Below are positions 15,158 through 57,017 of a stretch of DNA of 64,000 nucleotides, one piece after another. The stretch's first letter is position 1, and the number at the start of each line of letters is the position of its first letter. The stretch is from positions 1 to 64,000 of the forward strand of contig NW_026515691.1 of the NCBI RefSeq assembly GCF_025526975.1, given 5' to 3'. The DNA is from Fimicolochytrium jonesii. Taxonomy: Eukaryota. The notes under the pieces were generated by a model, which ran no database searches, had not been told where the DNA came from, and was given only the letters and a program-made list of their open reading frames with translations. The translations under genes and the position numbers were made by a program.

Positions 15158-18100
15158 TCACCCCCTCCTTGAGCCACGGCGTCCGGATGTTGTTTTGATG
15201 TTGGCAGGCTTTGGTCGGGGTTTGTCGGGGTACTTTTGGTGGAACTGGGCAACAAGCTCTTGACATCGGGCAAGGTGTTCCACTGGCTCCCATGTGTTCT
15301 CCGAGCTTGGCCAACCCTGCCACTTGATGAGGTACTGAAGGTGCGTGCGTCGAATACGGGAGTCAAGAATGTCTTCCACAATCCATTCCTCCTGTCCTTC
15401 GACTTCTTCTGGTGGGGTGGGTTCTGGCTCAGTTCGCTCCGGAATGGTGAAACGTGGTTCAAGAAGGGAGACATGGAAGACGTTGTGAATTTTGTAGGAT
15501 GGGGGAAGCTTGAGGCGATATGTGACCGAGTTGATCTTCTCCGTGATTGTGAAGGGGCCAATCTTACGGTGATCAAGTTTCTGGGAAGGTCGGAGAGTCT
15601 TGAGATTCCGCTGTAAGAGCCAGACACTGTCCCCGGGTTTCATGTCTGGGCCAGGTGCCCTCTTAGCATCGGCAAAGCGCTTCATGCGTCCTTGGGCCTC
15701 CTTGAGCTCAGTGGCAAGCTGTTCATGGATTTCCTTGAGATGGTTGGCACGAGCTTCGGCTGCAGGATTAAGGGATTCGGTTGTGGTGGCGGAAGCCAGA
15801 CTGAATCGAGGATGGAACCCATAGTTGGCGTAGAAGGGGGTTGTCTGGGTGGCGGAGTGGATGGTGTTATTGTAAGAGAACTCAGCAGAAGACAAGAGTT
15901 CCTTCCAGTTATCTTGTTGATAGTTGCAAAAGCAGCGAAGGTATTGCTCAAGAATCTGATTGGTCCGCTCGGTTTGTCCATCGCTCTGGGGATGGAACGC
16001 CGATGAGAGGTTGACCTTGGTTCCCAGGAGAGCGAAGAGACGTTTCCAGAAGTGGGAGTTGAACTGTGGGCCACGGTCAGATACAATATCGTCGGGGAGT
16101 CCATGGAGCCGGATGACATGGTGCCAGATCAGATCTGCAGTTGACTCAGCGGTGGCAGTTTTCCTGCACGGTACAAAGTGCGCCATCTTGGTGAACCGGC
16201 AGATGACAACGAGCACAGAATCAACCCCATCACTGGCGGGTAGATCCGTGATGAAGTCCATGGAAATTGACCCCCAGGGGCGGTCAGGGACCTGCAGGGG
16301 TTGGAGGAGACCGTAGGGCTTGTGTCTGCTGGTCTTGGCTTGAGCACATACGTCGCAGGACCTGATGTAGGACTTGACAAAACGCCACTGGCTAGGCCAC
16401 CAGTAGTTGCGTGAGATGAGCTCCAGGGTCTTTGACATGCCGTAGTGTCCTGCCAAACGCGTGTCATGCATGTCCCGGCAGATCTCAGCACGGAGCTTGT
16501 TGGTGGGGACGTAGACAAGGTTGTCGTACAGCAGAACCCCATTTTCCTCGGAGAATCGCTTTATCCGTTCTTGGTCTTCTTGAGATTGCTGGGCAATGGG
16601 GGCCCTAAGCTGTCGCCGGATGGTTTGCGCAAACACATCGGATGCCAGGGCAGCTTTGATTTGGTCAAGGAGCGAGGAGTCCAGTGGGGTCAGATAAGTG
16701 GCGGCCAGGCGGAGATGGTCAGGGGTGAGGATCGTGGTTTCCTGGGAGCGGAATGCTTCTTCCCCCTCCCTTAGCTCGTATTCAGAGCGACGAGAGAGGG
16801 CGTCAGCTTGGTGTTGCTGGGTACCAGGGCGGTATGTGATGACAAAGTCAAAATCAGCAAAGAAGATTGACCAGCGGGATTGGCGGCGGTTGAGGGTACG
16901 GGTAGTCATGAAGTACTGGAGGTTCTTGTGGTCACAGTAAACGATGACCTTGTGGCGGGCACCAATGAGGTGGTGTCGCCATTGAGCAAATGAGTCTTGG
17001 ATAGCCAGGAGTTCCTTGTCGTAGATCTCATAGTTGATTTCCTCAGGAGTAAATTTGCGGGAGTGAAAGGCCACGGGGTGGAGTTGATCTGTGTCGTCGG
17101 GTTGAAGGAGGACGGCGCCAAGGGCAAAGTCGGAGGCATCGGATTCGACAATGAAGGGCTTGTCAGGGTCGGGGTGAGTCAGGATAGGTGCGGAGGTGAA
17201 GGCTTTCTTGAGGGTTTCAAAAGCTAGGTGTGCAGCGTGGGTCCATTTGAATGGCAAGTCTTTGCGAGTGAGCGTGGTCAGGGGTGCAACGATCGCAGAG
17301 TACCCTTGGATGAATCGCCGGTAGAAGTTGGCAAAACCAAGGAAGCGCTGGATGCCTTTGACATTCGTCGGGGGTTCCCATTCGGTAATGGCAGCCGTCT
17401 TCTTTGGGTCCATGGAAATGCCTTGCTGGGAGATGATAAACCCCAGGAACTCAACAGAGTCACGGTTGAATTCGCATTCTTCCGGTTTCGCATACAGCCC
17501 GTGCTGGCGGAGCCGTGAGAGCACCTCAGGGACGTGGTTGGGGTGGTTTTCTGGGTTTTTTGAGAAGATCAGAATGTCGTCAAGGTAGACCACAACAAAA
17601 ACGTCGAGAATGTCACGGAATATGTCGTTCATGAGGTGTTGGAATACTCCAGGGGCATTGGTGAGCCCAAACGGCATGACATTATACTCGAATAGGCCGT
17701 AGCGACATCGGAACGCTGTCTTCCATTCATCCCCTGGCCGGATCCGAAGAAGGTTGTAGGCTCCCCGGAGGTCAATCTTGGTGAGCTGGCGTGCCCCTCG
17801 AAGACGATCCATGATGCTGTTGATCAAGGGCAAGGGATAGCGATTCTTGATGGTGATATTGTTGAGTCCACCATAGTCGACGCACAGACGGAGGGAACCG
17901 TCCTTTTTCTTGACAAAGAGGACTGGGGCACCGGCGGGAGACTTGGAGTGCTTGATGAACCCCTTAGCTAGGTTCTCTTCAAGGTAGTCACAGAGTGCCT
18001 GCATTTCAGGCTCGCTGAGACTATAGATCGGGCCGAACGGTGGCTGTTTGCCCTCTTCTAAGTCGATGGGACAGTTGTAGGGTCGGTGCTCTGGGAGGGT

Positions 18101-19042
18101 ATCCGCGTTCTTCTTGGTGAAGACGTCCGCAAAATCTTGGTATTCTTCAGGTATGCTGGCCTTCGGATCTTTTGGAGGAGTGGTCGCCAGGGCTTGGGAA
18201 TCTGACTTGGTCGGATTGGCGTAGGCAATGAATGCCTGGTCATGCCTTGCCGCCACACGGAAAGCTGGGGCGCTGATAAACGATACGTGGATCGGTGTGG
18301 GTGCTGGGTCCAGTGTGTTGGGTGTCTGGGCTAGGGAGACTGAAATCTCGTCTTGATGGATACGGATCAGAGGTTCAGGGGTTTTTGAGGGCTTCGGGCT
18401 AGGTTCTGTTGGCAGGGCATCCCAGGAGGCGTATTGTCCAAAACCGCAATGGCAGCGGACGCAAAGAGTGCGAGTCTTCCAGTGTAGCTCCACATCATGG
18501 AGCTCAAACCAGGGAAGCCCCAGGATGATTGGCGCATGCGGGGAACATGTCACATGGAATACCACCTCCTCAAAATGGTCGTTGACCCACATGCCCAAAG
18601 GTTGGGTGTGATGGGTAATGGAGCCCGCATGGCTGGGACGTCCGTCAACCAGTTCAAGCGCAATGGGGTCCTCCTTCTTGACAAGTGGGATGCGGTGCTT
18701 GCGGGCATAACTTTTGTAGATGAAGCACGACATCGCACCGGTGTCGAGTAGTGCTGAAAGCTGAACTGGAGCTTGCTGGGCCGATATCTGCAGGGTAACA
18801 GGGTACTCGAATGGTGAGGATGGGCCCAAAGTCCGCATGGGTGGGGGTATCTCAGATAGGAGATTGACATTGTTGGTGGTCAGGAGAAGGGTGTTGCTGG
18901 AGATGCCAGGATCGGAGCAAGGTTTTGTGGCTTCTCCCTTGGCAGTACTGGCGTGGTGAGAAGGCCCAGGACAGGTGTTGCCCAGCTGCTCGGCCTTTAC
19001 TGCAGCTGGACTTGGGCAAAATCCTGGATGGGTGCAGGTTCC
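15158..19042 (-). CDS. pol: Pol polyprotein (protease, RT, RNase H, integrase, chromodomain), -1 frame relative to gag
   Basis: LLDTGA (PR); YLDD (RT); SDASDFALG/DKELLAI (RNase H); HHCC motif and D-D-E 'SMDFI..VSDRG..GQTERTN' (IN); C-terminal chromodomain 'YLIKWQGWPSSENTWEP'. The frame is open from 19042 (first ATG at 18838) and overlaps the end of gag. Confidence 0.95.
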   Translation of the reverse strand, partial: GTCTHPGFCPSPAAVKAEQLGNTCPGPSHHASTAKGEATKPCSDPGISSNTLLLTTNNVNLLSEIPPPMRTLGPSSPFEYPVTLQISAQQAPVQLSALLDTGAMSCFIYKSYARKHRIPLVKKEDPIALELVDGRPSHAGSITHHTQPLGMWVNDHFEEVVFHVTCSPHAPIILGLPWFELHDVELHWKTRTLCVRCHCGFGQYASWDALPTEPSPKPSKTPEPLIRIHQDEISVSLAQTPNTLDPAPTPIHVSFISAPAFRVAARHDQAFIAYANPTKSDSQALATTPPKDPKASIPEEYQDFADVFTKKNADTLPEHRPYNCPIDLEEGKQPPFGPIYSLSEPEMQALCDYLEENLAKGFIKHSKSPAGAPVLFVKKKDGSLRLCVDYGGLNNITIKNRYPLPLINSIMDRLRGARQLTKIDLRGAYNLLRIRPGDEWKTAFRCRYGLFEYNVMPFGLTNAPGVFQHLMNDIFRDILDVFVVVYLDDILIFSKNPENHPNHVPEVLSRLRQHGLYAKPEECEFNRDSVEFLGFIISQQGISMDPKKTAAITEWEPPTNVKGIQRFLGFANFYRRFIQGYSAIVAPLTTLTRKDLPFKWTHAAHLAFETLKKAFTSAPILTHPDPDKPFIVESDASDFALGAVLLQPDDTDQLHPVAFHSRKFTPEEINYEIYDKELLAIQDSFAQWRHHLIGARHKVIVYCDHKNLQYFMTTRTLNRRQSRWSIFFADFDFVITYRPGTQQHQADALSRRSEYELREGEEAFRSQETTILTPDHLRLAATYLTPLDSSLLDQIKAALASDVFAQTIRRQLRAPIAQQSQEDQERIKRFSEENGVLLYDNLVYVPTNKLRAEICRDMHDTRLAGHYGMSKTLELISRNYWWPSQWRFVKSYIRSCDVCAQAKTSRHKPYGLLQPLQVPDRPWGSISMDFITDLPASDGVDSVLVVICRFTKMAHFVPCRKTATAESTADLIWHHVIRLHGLPDDIVSDRGPQFNSHFWKRLFALLGTKVNLSSAFHPQSDGQTERTNQILEQYLRCFCNYQQDNWKELLSSAEFSYNNTIHSATQTTPFYANYGFHPRFSLASATTTESLNPAAEARANHLKEIHEQLATELKEAQGRMKRFADAKRAPGPDMKPGDSVWLLQRNLKTLRPSQKLDHRKIGPFTITEKINSVTYRLKLPPSYKIHNVFHVSLLEPRFTIPERTEPEPTPPEEVEGQEEWIVEDILDSRIRRTHLQYLIKWQGWPSSENTWEPVEHLARCQELVAQFHQKYPDKPRPKPANIKTTSGRRGSRRG

Positions 19043-19923
19043 TTAACCGCGACATTCGCCGTGCGTATCTTGTTCGGGCAGAGTTTGGCTATGTGGCCGG
19101 GTTTACCACAGTAGAGGCAAAGTTTGTTTGTGATGCGGTGTTGGCGCTCTAGCGGTGTGAGGGGTCCTCGCGGACGAGCAGCGTCAATGATCATAGGGTC
19201 GTCTGGGCGGTTGTCGGGGCTCATGAGGGTGGGGCTAGTGGTAACTGGCACATATGGCTGTCGGTTCCTGCTTCGCTCTAGACGGCGCTCAAACAATCGG
19301 TTGTCACATTGGATGGCCTGTTCCATCACGGTGTCGATTGAGGCGGTAGGGGGCATCGTGAGCATTAAGTCCTTGACGTCTTCTTTGAGGCCGCGACGGA
19401 AGGTGGCAATCAATGCCTGGTCATTCCACGACACATCGCATTGCAGCTGTCGGAATTCAGCTACATACTCTGTTGCTGCACGGGTTTGTCGAAGGTTCTG
19501 GAGCTTGTTTTCGGACGTGCGGATCCTGTCGCTGTCTCCAAAGACTGCTTGCATTTGCTGGATGAAATCATCCAGGTTCGTAAGGGAATGATGGTCTTGT
19601 TCGACAAGGGGCGCCAGCCAGGCCTGGGCGGTGCCAGTGAGGTAGGTGCCAATAGTTCGTATCTTGGTCTGATCGTTGGGGTAGCGCCTGGGTTGGAGGG
19701 CGAACATGAGCCGGATCTGGTTGAGGAACCCACGGAACTTGCTTCGGGTGCCATCAAATTTGTCTGGGAGACTGATTTTGGGTTCGGGGGCGTGGGTGGC
19801 AGGGGCAGTGGTCTGGGTTTGCGCTAGTTCGGCCTGTAGGGTGGTATTCTGCGCTCGAAGTTCGTCAATCGCATTGCACATGGCTTGCCAGGCTTCGGCC
19901 GTGAGGGGAAGGGCGTCGGACAT
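18997..19923 (-). CDS. gag: Gag (capsid plus CCHC zinc knuckle)
   Basis: 'PDKFDGTRSKFRGFLNQ', 'LRQT..ATEYVAEF', 'FRRGLKEDVKD' and zinc knuckle 'CLYCGKPGHIAKLC'. Confidence 0.95.
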   Translation of the reverse strand: MSDALPLTAEAWQAMCNAIDELRAQNTTLQAELAQTQTTAPATHAPEPKISLPDKFDGTRSKFRGFLNQIRLMFALQPRRYPNDQTKIRTIGTYLTGTAQAWLAPLVEQDHHSLTNLDDFIQQMQAVFGDSDRIRTSENKLQNLRQTRAATEYVAEFRQLQCDVSWNDQALIATFRRGLKEDVKDLMLTMPPTASIDTVMEQAIQCDNRLFERRLERSRNRQPYVPVTTSPTLMSPDNRPDDPMIIDAARPRGPLTPLERQHRITNKLCLYCGKPGHIAKLCPNKIRTANVAVKEPAPIQDFAQVQLQ

Positions 19924-19974
19924 GGTGATTTGGCGTGGAGGTACAGCGGCTGGGGGTTGTTGAGCAGATCAAAC

Positions 19975-20504
19975 TGTTATGAATGGGCGGAGCCGAGGGA
20001 AATAGAGGCGACTTGTGGTGCAGGTTGTTGACAGGTAATGGTATTCAGACCGAAACAAGAACTAGAACAAGACTAGGAAGAACTGGTGTCGATCTGCTGG
20101 GGGATCAGGAAGTGGGGAGCTCAGGGGAGGCGGCTATTTATGTTTTTCTGGGAAGGCTGGGGAAGCGTGGGGAAGCAGAAGGGTACGGAATGAGAGGGAA
20201 GCCAAGAGAAGCGCCAAGGGTGGGGAAGCATAGAAACAGAAGACTGGGGATGGGGTGGCTACGCTGAGGCTGTGGGCGGGTACGTGGGGAAGTATGGAGA
20301 AGGGTTTGTAAGCGCCGAGTGTTGGGAGGTGTGGCTACGTGCGGCTGCGTGGAGAAATGAAGGCAGTGGCAGGTGTGGGGTAGCGCGGCTGCGTGCGGCT
20401 GCGAGGTTTGGCAGATGTCAGGTTTTGACAGGGAATTGACATTGACTGACTGTTGGGATGCTGTCATGAGGTAAGCGCATGGTATGGACGCGTCGTCCAT
20501 AACA
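19975..20504 (-). repeat. 5' LTR (530 bp)
   Basis: Same termini as the 3' LTR, with a longer and different internal block around 20160-20232. Confidence 0.95.
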
Positions 20505-20589
20505 ATGATAGGGGCGCGTGGCGCAAGGTGTATTGTATTTGTTCCCGCAAGCGCTATAACTAAGAATGCTGTTTCTGCCGACTATATAT

Positions 20590-22164
20590 TCACGGATCTA
20601 CCCGCCAGTGATGGGGTTGATTCTGTGCTCGTTGTCATCTGCCGGTTCACCAAGATGGCGCACTTTGTACCGTGCAGGAAAACTGCCACCGCTGAGTCAA
20701 CTGCAGATCTGATCTGGCACCATGTCATCCGGCTCCATGGACTCCCCGACGATATTGTATCTGACCGTGGCCCACAGTTCAACTCCCACTTCTGGAAACG
20801 TCTCTTCGCTCTCCTGGGAACCAAGGTCAACCTCTCATCGGCGTTCCATCCCCAGAGCGATGGACAAACCGAGCGGACCAATCAGATTCTTGAGCAATAC
20901 CTTCGCTGCTTTTGCAACTATCAACAAGATAACTGGAAGGAACTCTTGTCTTCTGCTGAGTTCTCTTACAATAACACCATCCACTCCGCCACCCAGACAA
21001 CCCCCTTCTACGCCAACTATGGGTTCCATCCTCGATTCAGTCTGGCTTCCGCCACCACAACCGAATCCCTTAATCCTGCAGCCGAAGCTCGTGCCAACCA
21101 TCTCAAGGAAATCCATGAACAGCTTGCCACTGAGCTCAAGGAGGCCCAAGGACGCATGAAGCGCTTTGCCGATGCTAAGAGGGCACCTGGCCCAGACATG
21201 AAACCCGGGGACAGTGTCTGGCTCTTACAGCGGAATCTCAAGACTCTCCGACCTTCCCAGAAACTTGATCACCGTAAGATTGGCCCCTTCACAATCACGG
21301 AGAAGATCAACTCGGTCACATATCGCCTCAAGCTTCCCCCATCCTACAAAATTCACAACGTCTTCCATGTCTCCCTTCTTGAACCACGTTTCACCATTCC
21401 GGAGCGAACTGAGCCAGAACCCACCCCACCAGAAGAAGTCGAAGGACAGGAGGAATGGATTGTGGAAGACATTCTTGACTCCCGTATTCGACGCACGCAC
21501 CTTCAGTACCTCATCAAGTGGCAGGGTTGGCCAAGCTCGGAGAACACATGGGAGCCAGTGGAACACCTTGCCCGATGTCAAGAGCTTGTTGCCCAGTTCC
21601 ACCAAAAGTACCCCGACAAACCCCGACCAAAGCCTGCCAACATCAAAACAACATCCGGACGCCGTGGCTCAAGGAGGGGGTGATGTTATGGACGACGCGT
21701 CCATACCATGCGCTTACCTCATGACAGCATCCCAACAGTCAGTCAATGTCAATTCACTGTCAAAACCTGACATCTGCCAAACCTCGCAGCCGCACGCAGC
21801 CGCGCTACCCCACACCTGCCACTGCCTTCATTTCTCCACGCAGCCGCACGTAGCCACACCTCCCAACACTCGGCGCTTACAAACCCTTCTCCATACTTCC
21901 CCACGTACCCGCCCACAGCCTCAGCGTAGCCACCCCATCCCCAGTCTTCTGTTTCCATACTTCCCCACGTACTCGCCCACAGCCTTCCCAGAAAAACATA
22001 AATAGCCGCCTCCCCTGAGCTCCCCACTTCCTGATCCCCCAGCAGATCAACACCAGTTCTTCCTAGTCTTGTTCTAGTTCTTGTTTCGGTCTGAATACCA
22101 TTACCTGTCAACAACCTGCACCACAAGTCGCCTCTATTTCCATCGGCTCCGCCCATTCATAACA
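20590..22164 (+). mobile_element. 5'-truncated second copy of the same chromovirus (integrase core, chromodomain, PPT, LTR 21684-22164), inverted orientation
   Basis: Reverse complement of 14677-16251 (1575 bp) with the same integrase/chromodomain translation; no matching TSD at the left junction. Confidence 0.93.
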
Positions 22165-43977: not shown

Positions 43978-44392
43978 AAGCCGTAGAGTATGGCGTGCGG
44001 TGTATGTGTAGGCCAGTTAGATAAATACATAGATTCTGCTCTCGTCCGACATCTCCTCGTTTAGGCCCAATAATATATCTTCTCAATTCTATGGCTGCAA
44101 AGCAGACAGAGCTCTACGCTCGTCGCATGGCGTCCCGTAGGCCGCGACGCGTGCCGCATCTGACTGACAGTGACCTTCTTCACAAGCCTCTGCGCCGTTC
44201 CCTTCGTTCCTTTCTTACTGCCTCCACCGCTTCAAAGACCAACATCTTCCCCATACGTGAGAATTTTTTTCTTTGACCAGCTGGGGATAGTCAGCTGAGC
44301 TACATGCGACCATCTCACGCTTGAACCGGTAATGCTGCGAGTGCCTTTGGGATCTGCCTGCCGCTGATGAGTTGAAATCTCTAGCTCCACGT

Positions 44393-44430
44393 GGGGTTAG
44401 GGTTAACCCTTTCGGGTTAGCCCTAACCCC
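44393..44430. repeat. Inverted telomere-like repeat hairpin
   Basis: GGGGTTAGGGTTAACCC-TTTC-GGGTTAGCCCTAACCCC: 17-bp arms with a single G/T mismatch. Confidence 0.85.
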
Positions 44431-44829
44431 TCCTGACATTCCTCTAAGGCAGAGACTGTCCACTGGCTTCCAGGCAACGTGCACTAGTAAGCATAATGGC
44501 ATTGCAGGGGCTTTGCAGCCATAGCAATCGCCCCGCCTACGGCGGCTACCAATGGACATAAGGCTTTGGAAGCCTGCAGGCAGGTTACGGTTCTGGACGA
44601 TCATACCCATATGGTGCACGGTAAAAGCGTCGGGCAGGTGCAAGTTGCAACCCGATTTCACAGGGGTTTCGCCCATCATCAGACACGTCCGCCCTTTCGG
44701 ACGTGCTGTTTTCGGACTCGATTGCGTCCGATGGACCTGCGAGTTCTCTCCCAAGCACAGCACAAATCCCTTGTACTATTCCGCCCAACAAGAACTAACT
44801 TGATCGACATTAGAGGACTACCCAGCAAT

Positions 44830-47800: not shown

Positions 47801-48457
47801 GATGGCGGCAGCAACACCGTCACGTTCACAACCAGGCAGCTGGAGAGTATGATTCGGTTGGCTGAGGGACATGCTCGGATGAGGTATGGGAGGATGCTGG
47901 TATTTGGAAAGCGAGAGGCCTCAGTCCTGACCAAGTACTTCTCTTTCAGGCTGTCTTTGACTGTAGACAGGATTGATGTCGACGAAGCCCATCGGTGAGT
48001 GGTAAATTGCGGCGGATCTCTCTCCTCTGCTTCCTTACTCACAGACCCCTCCGTTTTAGCTTGGTCCACACCGCCCTTCAGACCGCCGCCATCGACCCCA
48101 AAACCGGATTGATCGATTTAGATCTCGTCAACACGGGCATCAGCTCCCGATCGCGACGGGTGCATGCGGACAAGCGAGCCGCTTTGCGAGCGCTTCTTCA
48201 GAACATGGACCGCGTTAGCGTCAAGTGGGTTGAGGCTTTCCGCATGTTTGGGGACCAGTCCGATGAGGTAAGACACTGCCGCATTTCACTGGCAAATGAG
48301 GGTCGCCTCAACTCATCTCACCCGCGTTGTTCTTCCCCAGCACATCCCTGAATACGAATTCAACCAGCTACTGGACGAGCTGTCGGATGAGGGTTCGGTG
48401 CACGTTACAGGGCGTAGCAATGCTGAAAAGATGATTCGCAAGACGGGAGGGATGTGA
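44830..48457 (+). CDS. MCM4: DNA replication licensing factor MCM4, multi-exon
   Basis: S/T-P-rich N-terminus, 'VIWGTTVN', zinc finger, '[18 protein letters not shown]', Walker A '[11 protein letters not shown]', 'IDEFDKM', arginine finger 'LLSRFD', '[18 protein letters not shown]'. Confidence 0.95.
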
Positions 48458-48809: not shown

Positions 48810-49667
48810 CTATCTACCATACGCCTGGCTTCTCTCGCCATCTTCCTGATGCTCTGATCGATGTTGCTCTCCTTCAGCACCCTGTTCGTGGTGACTGGCG
48901 CGGAGGTCCTCATCCGCTCTTCTTGTAACGTTGATGCCACCTACGTAGATTTTTGACCCATGAGCAATGAGTCTAAATTTTCCAGACATATCCGACGCTA
49001 CTTACGTTGTGCCACCTTGATCTTTGCGATATTGGGGCCTTCCCCTTTTGCCTTGTAATAACTCAGCTTTCCCTCGACAATAACATATGCCCTACAAAAC
49101 CAAGGAACGGTTCCTCAATAACCGAAGTAAACTGTCTCCCACGTTAGAATAAAGGGTATAAGTAGTCCGTACCCCTTCTCAAAGTCTTGAGGCAGCTCTC
49201 CCTCGAGCTGGACCTGGTGCCACAGGAGGACGTTCTTCCATTCCCCCGTCTCCGGATTCTTCTTGCCCTCCCTGGTCACAACAGGAAAGTTCCACCTACC
49301 CGTCCCGTCTTTGAACTCCACTCTCCTCGCATCATCACCGACGCGACCGTGTACGATGACCTTCTGGTAATCGGCTGCGGGCAATTCTAGTCGTTAGAGT
49401 CGGTGGAAGCATAGGACTGAAAGTGTCCTTTTCACATGGAAGATGGAAGGGTCTCATGGACGCGGAACTTACGACGGAGGAAAGCGGCAGGAGTTGTGCT
49501 TGTGAATGACTAGATCGAAGAAGATAGAAAGACAAAAGGTTCGCCCGGTAAGCAAGATGGTTTCATCTGGCCGCGAGAGATGACCTGTCACTGGCCGGGA
49601 GACCCTCCACACTCACCCTTGCTTGACGCAGGACAGGACAGGCCCGGCGAGCCTGAGTGAGGAACAT
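48810..49667 (-). CDS. RIM1: Mitochondrial single-stranded DNA-binding protein (SSB OB-fold), multi-exon
   Basis: Presequence 'MFLTQARRACPVLRQAR'; SSB fold 'KVIVHGRVGDD...WHQVQ...FEKG|AYVIVEGKLSY'; TAG at 48810-48812. Confidence 0.75.
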
Positions 49668-50109
49668 TCTTATCCAAGCTGACAGCTTCAGATAAATGCG
49701 ATACGGTGAGAGGACGCTTGCTGCTCGCTCGGTTGGAAGTTGATGAGTTGTGGGGGGCTGGGAGGGAAGATTGTTGACGTGAGCAGCGGGAGACTCCTTG
49801 CGACGTGCGGATGTCCGAACTGACTGCTGCGCCACTTGCCCGTCTGGGGTCTACATTTACAACACGACATGCTGGTGCACGGCTTTCCATCTGCGCTCTC
49901 TCATCAGCGCACTTCCAAAGCTGGCTCCCAGGGCACATCACCTGCAAGTCTCTCGCCAAAAAGGTCTCTCTGTGGGAAGATAGGAAACGAACGGCTCGCA
50001 ACTCCGGCGCCGCACACGCAGTACGTACACAAATCCCCGCTAGCGGTCATAGATGCTGCCTCTGGTTTCGTTCTCGGAATGGAGCAGAGCGCGTGCATCC
50101 CGCGGAATA

Positions 50110-50949
50110 GCGGGCAGGGCAGTCTGACCACTACGGCTTTCACCCCAGACGGAGATATGGAAAGCTAGTAGGCTGTGTGTGACAGCCAAATAGCTAGGGT
50201 CTTCCTTTCTGGTGTGCCTCCTGTCCCATCCGGACTGTCGAGGCTCTGAGAGGATACCCCGAGTAGATGGCTGCTCACGCTCACCGAAACACTTTTCTCA
50301 CCTGATGGGAGAACCTAACCCTAAGTGTGTGTCGGGGCGTTGAGAATCGTGTTCGAGCAACCTGGCTGGAGACGTCTGTTTGTGCACGTCTGCGTTCGCG
50401 CAGATTGCTTTGCTGAACAGAGCCGTCTCTCTGCCTGCTCACATTGATGCTCCGCTTTGACGATGGCTTTGGTCATCGCCCTCATGCCCAGTATTTTACG
50501 GCTGTCTTTGACTGGGTTTCTGCTTGGGCAAACGCCCAACAGAACAAAAAAACTACAAGACGGTCTTAGGTCGCTGCCCGTACCTGTGTTGATATGTGTG
50601 TGCGGCTTGCCATTGCGTGCTTTGATCTTTCCTATCGAAATCGGGCTGGGGACGTACATCACCCCACGGAGACGCCTTGACAGCGGATGAAGACGATCTC
50701 TGCCATGCCTAGAAGCTGCAACCTTCGTTGGAGTTGGGGGAAAGTTTCGCAACAAAGGAGGGAAAACCGTCGGTAACCCTCGGGTAGGCCGTGCGTTAAA
50801 GGTTCGTCCTTGCTATTCCCTCCCGACGCGACATTGCTGCCTTTTTGGAGGTGTGCAAATTCCCTCGGCTTATACCAAACAGCGCTGCAAGTGGCGATAA
50901 TGGGCTTGGCATCGAGACTGTCTGGAACGTCTGTCTGGAGGACTTGCGG
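50110..50949 (+). ncRNA. Candidate telomerase RNA (TER/TR); ends approximate
   Basis: Template CCTAACCCTAA (50314-50324) directly after a hairpin (50295-50313); H-type pseudoknot (50487-50565); enclosing helix 50117-50129 / 50569-50579; CR4/5-like three-way junction (50757-50823) with P6.1 AAGG-UUCGU-CCUU; no credible protein ORF. Confidence 0.8.
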
Positions 50950-51280
50950 GTAAGTGGAGTGTGTTGTGGGATCATGCGCTCCCCTGCCCAAATTTTTTAC
51001 CTCCTGACTTGCAAGATGTCGGTCTTTGAACTGAGTATCAGTGGGATTCTGGTCTTTCAGAACCCCTCGAACTCACTTCAAAGGTCCCTCTGCAGTTTGC
51101 GGGAAATAAGAATTAATGCAATACTCCTTGGGATTGCCAGGGTGCGCCAAAGGCGGAGATTTGTCGGTCAAATTGTCGGTCACAACTGTCGATGCTATTC
51201 CCCAGCTTAGCAATATATGCAAAATGTGGCAAACGTAGGTACAAAGTGAACGAGGTTTGCGGCACCCCATGTTGCAAGTG

Positions 51281-52252
51281 CTACCTCCATGGCCGCCGTT
51301 CACTCGGTGGCCGTGCTTTTGTACTGGTCATGGAATGTGGTCTCGCCCGCATCGCAATCTCGCTGGGATGCCAATGCGTAAAACCACTCTTCCAGCATAG
51401 CCTCCCCTTCCCTCCTGTCAACCTATCCGCATCGTATCTCGAATCGACGACACCAGCGTCCCTCGTTCTCCATCGACCACCAGGCCTCGATCTCGAGGTA
51501 GCCAGCACATCGTCTTCGGCAAGAAAATCGGTAAGCGTGCAGCTAAAGTCGACCTCGGCTTTCGTCGAAGTACGCAGATATGGTCGACGGCCATCTACCG
51601 TGGGTGGTGGGCATCCGCGCTTCGGTATTGGACGCGAGTGCGGGTCGCGCTTTTCGTTATGCGAGCGTCGTGCCTGTGCTAGTCTTTTGGTGAAGTTGTG
51701 CAGTGCCAGCTGCGGTCGTGGGATTTGGGTTTGAGATGGAGGGACCGTTGTTCTGCCGCGCTTTGTGGGTTGCGGCGGTGGTCGGTGCGCTGTAGGGTCT
51801 TTCGGCTCAGCTTTCGTGGTCGGTCGCCCGTGATAAGCTCTCGTGTAGATGTTGCTCGAAGGTGCAGGTTTGCGCGTATACGACGCAGGGATCTTTGGCC
51901 CCTTCGACGAACACCCTTCCCTCCAGCGCCTTCTTCCCCTCTCCGCATCCTCATCGCCTTCCATCCCCACCCGAGCGTTCCGCATGCTCCCTCCCGCCTC
52001 CGCATCCCGCACATCCACACAGCCCCCCGCCACCGTCGAAATCACACCATCAATCTCCCTGTCACTCGACGCCGAAATCAGCCCTAATACCTCGGCGAAC
52101 AGGTTCTCGAGCTCGTCGCGCATGACTGTTATTCGTCCCGCTACACGCTCGGCATCGTCTAGCATTCGTAGGTATTCGGCTTCTGAGCCTTGCGGGATAT
52201 TGGAGGATTCGGATATCGAGTGTAGTTCTGGAATGTCTGATGTGTCTGACAT
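51281..52252 (-). CDS. Hypothetical protein (N-terminal coiled coil, basic low-complexity C-terminus)
   Basis: 323-aa ATG-initiated ORF, divergent from MIX23. No recognisable domain; exon structure uncertain. Confidence 0.45.
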   Translation of the reverse strand: MSDTSDIPELHSISESSNIPQGSEAEYLRMLDDAERVAGRITVMRDELENLFAEVLGLISASSDREIDGVISTVAGGCVDVRDAEAGGSMRNARVGMEGDEDAERGRRRWREGCSSKGPKIPASYTRKPAPSSNIYTRAYHGRPTTKAEPKDPTAHRPPPQPTKRGRTTVPPSQTQIPRPQLALHNFTKRLAQARRSHNEKRDPHSRPIPKRGCPPPTVDGRRPYLRTSTKAEVDFSCTLTDFLAEDDVLATSRSRPGGRWRTRDAGVVDSRYDADRLTGGKGRLCWKSGFTHWHPSEIAMRARPHSMTSTKARPPSERRPWR

Positions 52253-52586
52253 GGTTGATTGCTTTGTGCCTGGCGCACGACTGTTTTTGCAACGAGGCTA
52301 TTAGCAATCTTGAATTGCGAGCAAGATGAAACAGACGGAGACCTACAGAACATGTATGGATCGATAGAGAGCCCCAGGCTCCTGGTTCTTGCAAAAAGCA
52401 AAGCAGCCATGATTGAGGCCGCCGCCATGTTCGACATATTTCCGGACGGCCGACGCTTACGTTAACGCGTTCGAGGCTTGCAACATCATCCACTCGGAAG
52501 TTCCGATGTTCGGTAAGCTCCTATTCCCCGGCCAGTAGATCTAGACCTGCTACTCTGTGTAAATCTTCGTCCCTAAAACAACCGCA

Positions 52587-56481: not shown

Positions 56482-57017
56482 ATTGAGCAGCTTGAGGTGA
56501 GACGCTAAGCTAACAAAAAGGAAGTCCGAATCCTGCACAATTGAAGAGCCGAGTAACACTGCCAAACAAGCTGGGAAGGGAAAACGAAGAGATAAAGGCC
56601 TGTGAAATAGCGGAAAGAGGAAGAGAACGGAGACGGGGTGAAGATATGGGCTGCGAGGGGGTAGGTGTTTCTCGATAGGATGTAAAGTGATGGGGAAACG
56701 GGGAACTTCAACTTCGACCGCCTGGCCCGCCTGCGCATTCGTCGCGGCATTAGCAAACGGATTGACCGAAGTGTGTTCGACGTGCTGGCTCAGAACATCA
56801 CGGACAGACCATTCGATGTAGCGAGCTCGGTGCTAATCTTGCGCACCTTTAACATACGCTGCCAACCTCACATCGACTTTGCTGCCATAGCGGTCTCCCG
56901 CCTCCGGCTGCTCCCAATTCGACGTGCTGGCAGAAACCTCAGAAACGTTACAGACAGACGACACATACACAACATACGTACTCCTGAACTGCAGCAAACA
57001 ACTTCAACTCAGCCAAG

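Follow-up and report, generated by a model that had tools for sequence, protein, structure and literature searches.

Does the three-way junction that can be folded at 50757-50823 on the forward strand of a 64,000-nt stretch of Fimicolochytrium jonesii DNA (contig NW_026515691.1, positions 1 to 64,000; hereafter the window) belong to a telomerase RNA (TER), and what surrounds it? The host is a soil chytrid (Chytridiomycota, Spizellomycetales). A sequence-only reading had likened the junction to the CR4/5 domain of TERs. This reading is backed by a context that was absent from it: a pseudoknot, an Sm-like site and a telomere-repeat template with its boundary hairpin. With a probability of about 0.9, a predicted stand-alone TER of about 1,070 nt has in this junction its CR4/5 domain, the part that binds TERT and activates the enzyme. 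The support for this is structural and statistical and comes from one sequence. The junction consists of the following parts.

50757..50823, + strand: CR4/5-type three-way junction closed by P5 (50757-64/50816-23), with junction strands AAC, UUA and GCUA
50768..50795, + strand: P6, a short irregular hairpin of 10 pairs with the loop CUCG, as given by folding
50798..50812, + strand: P6.1 with its flanks, A-AAGG-UUCGU-CCUU-G; loop residues U50804 and G50806, loop unpaired with a probability of 0.97-1.0
50679..50935, + strand: long irregular arm with the junction at its tip; helices with a probability of 0.67-0.99

When 50750-50830 was folded, the three-way junction was both the minimum free energy (MFE) and the centroid structure. 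Pairing probabilities were 0.96 for P5, 0.93 for P6.1 and 0.99 for the core of P6 in four of five short contexts. In the fifth (50700-50860) P5 and P6.1 went down to 0.71. All three helices stayed at 0.93-0.99 in the long folds (936-1,251 nt), and the outer three pairs of P6 had a probability of 0.62. The eight Watson-Crick pairs that had been proposed for P5, GGAGGGAA (50757-64) with UUCCCUCC (50816-23), are present in the sequence, as is the proposed P6.1, AAGG-UUCGU-CCUU at 50799-50811 between A50798 and G50812. P6 had been rightly described as an irregular hairpin; its ends, placed at 50766 and 50796, are moved by folding to 50768 and 50795 (10 pairs). Two additional pairings, CGUUGG/CCGACG and GCAA/UUGC, that were thought to extend the arm have a probability of 0.0 in the ensemble of 50070-51005, and the CCGACG strand also conflicts with P5, which already uses C50823. 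According to the folding, the arm is actually lengthened by UCGC/GCGA (50747-50/50828-31) and by a 12-bp helix (50731-42/50860-71).

P6.1 is defined in the accessible text of PMC3592445 as a 4-bp stem with a 5-nt NUNGN loop, and AAGG-UUCGU-CCUU falls within this definition. The A between P6 and P6.1, described as invariant in the part of PMC4993307 available to us, is found here as A50798 in the junction strand UUA. The vertebrate geometry that had been ascribed to P6.1 is borne out: the 4-bp stem and the NUNGN loop with its U2 and G4 are kept, and P6.1 with its flanks is identical at 9/15 positions to the vertebrate 15-mer AAGAGTTGGGCTCTG, for which the version printed in PMC10035886 was used. 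Both inner stem pairs differ from the vertebrate motif yet still pair, i.e. the differences are compensatory. In human numbering the conserved loop residues are U307 and G309. As a bare motif (4-bp stem, NUNGN loop) P6.1 has 39 matches in the window, both strands taken together, compared with 36.0 under the null model. With the A and G flanks the numbers are 4 and 2.1, and when A-U and G-C end pairs are also demanded a single site is left (50798-50812) against 0.17 under the null. A closing helix of at least 8 bp was seen in none of 128 simulated A/G-flanked matches. Among the 39 bare matches, the 50799 site alone combines a pairing probability above 0.5 with a template 100-2,500 nt upstream. 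The stability of the 81-nt junction piece by itself is ordinary (z -1.54, equalled by 16 of 200 shuffles).

The core elements of the predicted TER lie upstream of the junction.

50117..50129, + strand: 5' strand of a core-enclosing helix, pairing with 50569-50579 with a probability of 0.93-0.98 in all long folds
50295..50313, + strand: predicted template boundary element, hairpin UUCUC/GAGAA (50295-99/50309-13, probability 0.97)
50314..50324, + strand: template CCUAACCCUAA for TTAGGG repeats, 11 nt, the longest + strand telomere-repeat match in the window
50487..50565, + strand: H-type pseudoknot formed by PK1 (50487-92/50511-16, 6 bp) and PK2 (50500-08/50557-65, 9 bp including two G-U pairs)
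50518..50544, + strand: hairpin within the pseudoknot's second loop, where Neurospora has PK2.1 (probability 0.91-0.99)

The template is longer than one and shorter than two telomere repeats, and an 11-nt match was found in none of 60 simulated windows. Its first 9 nt are unpaired in the fold model (0.98-1.0) and its last two A residues are paired. The boundary hairpin stands directly 5' of the template and ends 1 nt before it. TTAGGG ends have been described for another chytrid, Batrachochytrium dendrobatidis (accessible text of PMC11797018). A 12-nt alternative template on the minus strand (44394-44405) was rejected, being paired in a hairpin and standing without other TER elements. The core-enclosing helix (50117-29/50569-79) comprises 11 bp and surrounds template and pseudoknot alike. 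Within the latter, the loop AUUUUAC is U-rich, and the A7 run at 50546-52 would be the A-rich strand. With regard to U-A.U base triples, three U-A pairs of PK2 face the U4 loop, of which only two are adjacent, and in the best register PK1 and PK2 have 2 unpaired nt at their junction. A descriptor of TER-type pseudoknots matched only here on either strand of the window, the null being 5 matches in 60 simulated windows. Part of the pseudoknot (50500-50514) is repeated exactly over 15 nt in an MCM4 exon (47949-47963; blastn E 0.22, probably chance).

On the + strand the order is that of TERs: template-adjacent hairpin, template, pseudoknot, junction and U-tract, with 163 nt between template and pseudoknot, 192 nt between pseudoknot and junction and 167 nt between junction and Sm-like site. 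The four elements by which TERs are defined in the accessible text of PMC3603654 (template, boundary, U/A pseudoknot and P6.1 junction) are all present and in order. Because the same stretch holds a telomere-repeat template and a predicted pseudoknot, the junction is likely the activating part of a TER. The joint chance of template, pseudoknot and junction in order, calculated as the product of rates from 60 simulated windows, is about 3e-8 per window, or 5e-6 when P5 is not demanded, figures that are optimistic because the locus was already known when the descriptors were drawn up. No Rfam telomerase family reached its gathering score in the window, nor did any match with an E of 10 or less, and the Rfam matches at the locus were at chance level (mir-456, E 4.6; eiav_FSE, E 4.1). 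The pseudoknot pattern gave 0 matches in a metagenome scan. A metagenome scan for synteny with the C-terminal exon of MCM4 yielded, from at least 601 candidate stretches, at least 12 distant loci (38-58% identity); among the MCM4 loci listed, none had the elements together, one had a 9-nt template match and a different one a flanked P6.1 match. As no homologue was found in the metagenome scans, membership of the TER family rests on one sequence.

The extent of the predicted RNA was derived from the fold of the whole region.

49930..51000, + strand: predicted telomerase RNA gene of about 1,070 nt, its ends inferred from folding
49931..50031, + strand: 5' segment with nested long-range helices that close the molecule (partners 50585-50678, 50941-50951 and 50986-50989; probability 0.96-1.00)

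The closing helices of the 5' segment include ones of 11, 10, 9 and 12 bp, and their partners change when 50040 or 50070 is taken as the start of the fold. For 49930-51000 (1,071 nt) the MFE was -447.4 and z was -7.73 on the + strand, a value to be read with the fact that the boundaries were picked after inspecting the fold, and -4.09 on the minus strand; on each strand 0 of 30 shuffles were as stable. After correction for composition this region ranked first of 59 windows of the same size (-5.0 SD relative to the 58 controls), at -66.0 kcal compared with -43.1 kcal for the runner-up, the window at 44101. A shorter cut of 931 nt had a z of -4.80 and the widest gap to its shuffles among 14 windows. 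The 300-nt windows across the locus were unexceptional, with stability ranks of 35-337 out of 638. Therefore, the stability of the region comes from long-range pairing.

At the 3' end of this region two sets of signals overlap.

50990..50998, + strand: Sm-like site AAAUUUUUU, the predicted 3' end, in a single-stranded tail beyond the terminal helix
50950..51016, + strand: intron-like signals GUAAGU ... CUGAC (51004) ... AAG, which enclose the Sm-like site

The Sm-like sequence AAUUUUUU, which starts at 50991, is unpaired with a probability of 0.99-1.0 in the fold of 49930-51005 and is partly paired when the fold extends to 51150. The consensus for such sites is given as AAUUUUU in the accessible text of PMC12506658. 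AAT5+ occurs twice on the + strand of the window, once as the Sm-like site; for AAUUUUUU, about 0.009 occurrences would be expected by chance within 300 nt. Another candidate, CUUUUUGG at 50841-48, was discarded: it has no 5' A and sits in a hairpin. A box H/ACA 3' domain is absent, since one ANANNA (50872) and one ACA (50879) occur with no hairpin between them and no further ACA follows up to 51120. Just after the Sm-like site, 51013-51030 forms an 18-nt inverted match (17/18, E 0.22) with 44231-44248, which is part of the folded non-coding stretch at 44 kb.

The intron-like segment is 67 nt long, like the MCM4 introns in size. It begins at the end of the 11-bp terminal helix and contains the Sm-like site, which its GUAAGU (50950) precedes by 40 nt; there is no A-U5 site upstream of this GUAAGU. 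The signals are a lead only, because about 0.03 GUAAGU donors are expected per 200 nt. In ascomycete TERs the Sm site comes first and then the splice site (accessible text of PMC4299874 and PMC3603654). This layout, in which a 5' splice site coincides with or closely follows the Sm site and the branch site lies downstream, is not that of the locus. It is unlikely that the predicted F. jonesii TER has its 3' end generated through the spliceosome, in an arrangement unseen in ascomycetes. The Sm site would be lost on splicing or on first-step cleavage, so that Sm loading and spliceosome entry would compete. Were it true, the link between TERs and introns, which is viewed as exclusive to Ascomycota in the part of PMC12506658 at hand, would be placed at the base of Fungi.

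Among the genes of the window are Tom1/HUWE1, a PPR gene, a Ty3 element, MCM4 and a CCCH zinc-finger gene. The Ty3/gypsy chromodomain retrotransposon occupies 15158-21683 (gag 18997-19923 and pol 15158-18838, minus strand), with a second integrase-chromodomain piece beside it on the + strand (20484-21683). MCM4 ends at 48457, and two genes on the minus strand are close to or overlap the locus.

48810-49667, - strand: intron-containing SSB-family gene (Pfam SSB E 3e-4, below the curated cut-off)
50659-52428, - strand: orphan gene model EV422DRAFT_603131 (P0127, 514 aa), whose last exon (about 51008-50659) covers the junction

The first exon of the SSB-family gene, MFLTQARRACPVLRQAR, runs from the ATG at 49667, and the gene points away from the TER locus. 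By its sequence this exon looks like a mitochondrial presequence, and the gene probably encodes a mitochondrial single-strand binding protein. About 260 nt separate the start codon of this divergent gene from the beginning of the gap that holds the TER elements, and such an upstream neighbour points to a promoter of its own for the predicted TER. That the RNA is a product of the MCM4 3' UTR is unlikely, because the SSB gene, convergent with MCM4, intervenes. A sigma-70 scan was not informative for a fungus. Upstream of MCM4 lies a 436-nt non-coding stretch (44089-44524) bounded by a perfect 15-bp inverted repeat, with z -5.54 on the + strand and -3.76 on the minus strand. It carries a 17-bp hairpin with telomere-type repeats on both arms and a 4-nt loop (44393-44430) as well as an AAT7 tract at 44262; its Rfam matches are at chance level only, and 43 nt of it are 81% like 56877-56918. 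This stretch may be either a small non-autonomous element or an RNA of unassigned class.

The last exon of P0127 overlies the junction, and it has to be considered whether this exon is the real gene and the + strand fold incidental to it. On the minus strand, GTGAG is available as a donor at 51076 and CTGAT is present at 51041. However, when the 323-aa exon was compared with 3,424 candidates of 177-566 aa, none was related at E up to 1, the ORF of the last exon matched no Pfam family (the N-terminal part of P0127 gave only CorA, E 0.37) and the overlapping antisense ORF 50324-50812 had no match among 1.84 billion representatives. The codon-model score of the last exon, -0.183 bits per codon, is lower than the minimum of the 31 trusted coding chunks (-0.166) and falls among those of antisense ORFs (-0.149 and -0.219). 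Furthermore, the exon misses the template and the pseudoknot, the + strand folds better, and an antisense transcript could coexist with a TER. That the sequence is a coding exon with an incidental fold is highly improbable, and the last exon over the predicted TER is probably mis-predicted, while P0127 near 51900-52267 has a coding-like score.

The locus could also be another structured non-coding RNA or a decayed copy, the working TER being elsewhere in the genome. Another strongly folding non-coding stretch with telomere-type repeats exists at 44085-44528 (z -5.54), from which it follows that such repeats occur nearby outside the locus. Yet in that stretch the repeats are locked in a 17-bp hairpin, and it has no pseudoknot match and no A/G-flanked P6.1, whereas at the locus all TER elements are intact and ordered; by blastn the locus is single-copy within the window. 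We regard this explanation as very unlikely, if slightly less so than the coding one. That unrelated motifs have come together by chance in an intergenic gap is as improbable as a coding origin. Each small motif is common alone, the scan spans very many windows and the descriptors were tuned post hoc, but the joint estimate has to be set against a prior of about 1 in 500 that the TER of the genome falls in a given 64-kb window (assuming a genome of some 30 Mb), and the z of the whole region is -7.7.

Taken as a TER, the locus is closest in layout to the TERs of Pezizomycotina such as N. crassa. According to the accessible text of PMC3592445 and PMC3603654, these share with it the TTAGGG template with an adjacent boundary helix. 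Common to both, too, are a helix that encloses the core, a pseudoknot of PK1 and PK2 into which a hairpin (PK2.1) is inserted, and a P5/P6/P6.1 junction of compact form whose P6.1 has a 4-bp stem and NUNGN loop (PMC3592445, same proviso). The locus is about half as long as a Pezizomycotina TER, that of A. oryzae being given as 1,869-2,355 nt (PMC3603654, in part). It has no AUAAGU splice site of the Pezizomycotina type beside the Sm site; instead, the canonical GUAAGU stands 40 nt upstream. PK1 and PK2 are described as contiguous in non-yeast fungi in the text available from PMC3592445, whereas they are 2 unpaired nt apart here.

The Ustilago maydis TER and the candidate TERs of Malassezia resemble the locus in a CR4/5 with P6.1 and in a 3' Sm-like AAU5-6 site (accessible text of PMC9564094, PMC10035886 and PMC12506658). 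The size class is similar too, the Ustilago TER being given as about 1,300 nt compared with about 1,070 nt here, and the Sm-like site reads AAU6AC at the locus and AAU5-6CY in Ustilago and Malassezia as far as these sources describe it. In the same partial text, the U. maydis TER is cut from the 3' UTR of the Emi1 mRNA (PMC9564094) and has a branched P6 (P6a/P6b), whereas the locus adjoins a divergent SSB gene and its P6 is a simple hairpin. With the CR4/5 of vertebrate and sponge telomerase RNAs it shares the P6.1 geometry, the A before P6.1 and an 11-nt template (PMC8480181 and PMC4993307, in part). Those RNAs have a box H/ACA 3' domain, which the locus does not. At the locus the template boundary is a local hairpin and not only P1. 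The locus is also two to three times longer.

By analogy with the known systems, the predicted TER would be transcribed by RNA polymerase II, as work on Neurospora, Ustilago and vertebrates suggests. TERT would bind the template-pseudoknot domain, and its RNA-binding domain would make a separate contact with P6/P6.1; its grip on the junction may use P6 and the junction A, as described in the accessible text of PMC4993307. The loop residues U50804 and G50806 and the junction residue A50798 would be required for activity. In N. crassa, activity is restored when a template-pseudoknot fragment and a P6/P6.1 fragment are supplied in trans, and mutations have been made at the U and G of the loop (PMC3592445, in the part available). 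The enzyme would copy CCUAACCCU(AA) into TTAGGG repeats and halt at the template-adjacent hairpin. An Sm ring on AAUUUUUU may protect the 3' end near 51000, a protection that has been proposed for Ustilago (PMC9564094) and Malassezia (PMC12506658) in the text accessible to us.

Fungal TERs have been described from Ascomycota and Basidiomycota, judging from the accessible text of PMC9564094 and PMC12506658. One candidate from outside Dikarya was found in print, that of Lichtheimia, which is presented in the available part of PMC4133162 as ciliate-like and without homologues. A literature search, whose coverage left most subscription journals outside, retrieved no description of a chytrid TER, and no paper on chytrid TERT was found as judged by title. 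The locus is likely a TER of known type in a lineage for which the literature searched describes none.

In the phylogeny, animals and Dikarya are separated by a long branch, and a chytrid TER falls on it. If the identification is true, it would directly support the CR4/5 with P6.1 that has been inferred for the animal-fungal ancestor. A PK2.1-type insert would not be peculiar to Neurospora and its kin, and the Sm-type 3' end, as opposed to the H/ACA end of animals, would date to early Fungi. Spizellomyces punctatus, of the same order as F. jonesii, is transformable. The locus offers a seed for model searches over the early-diverging fungi.
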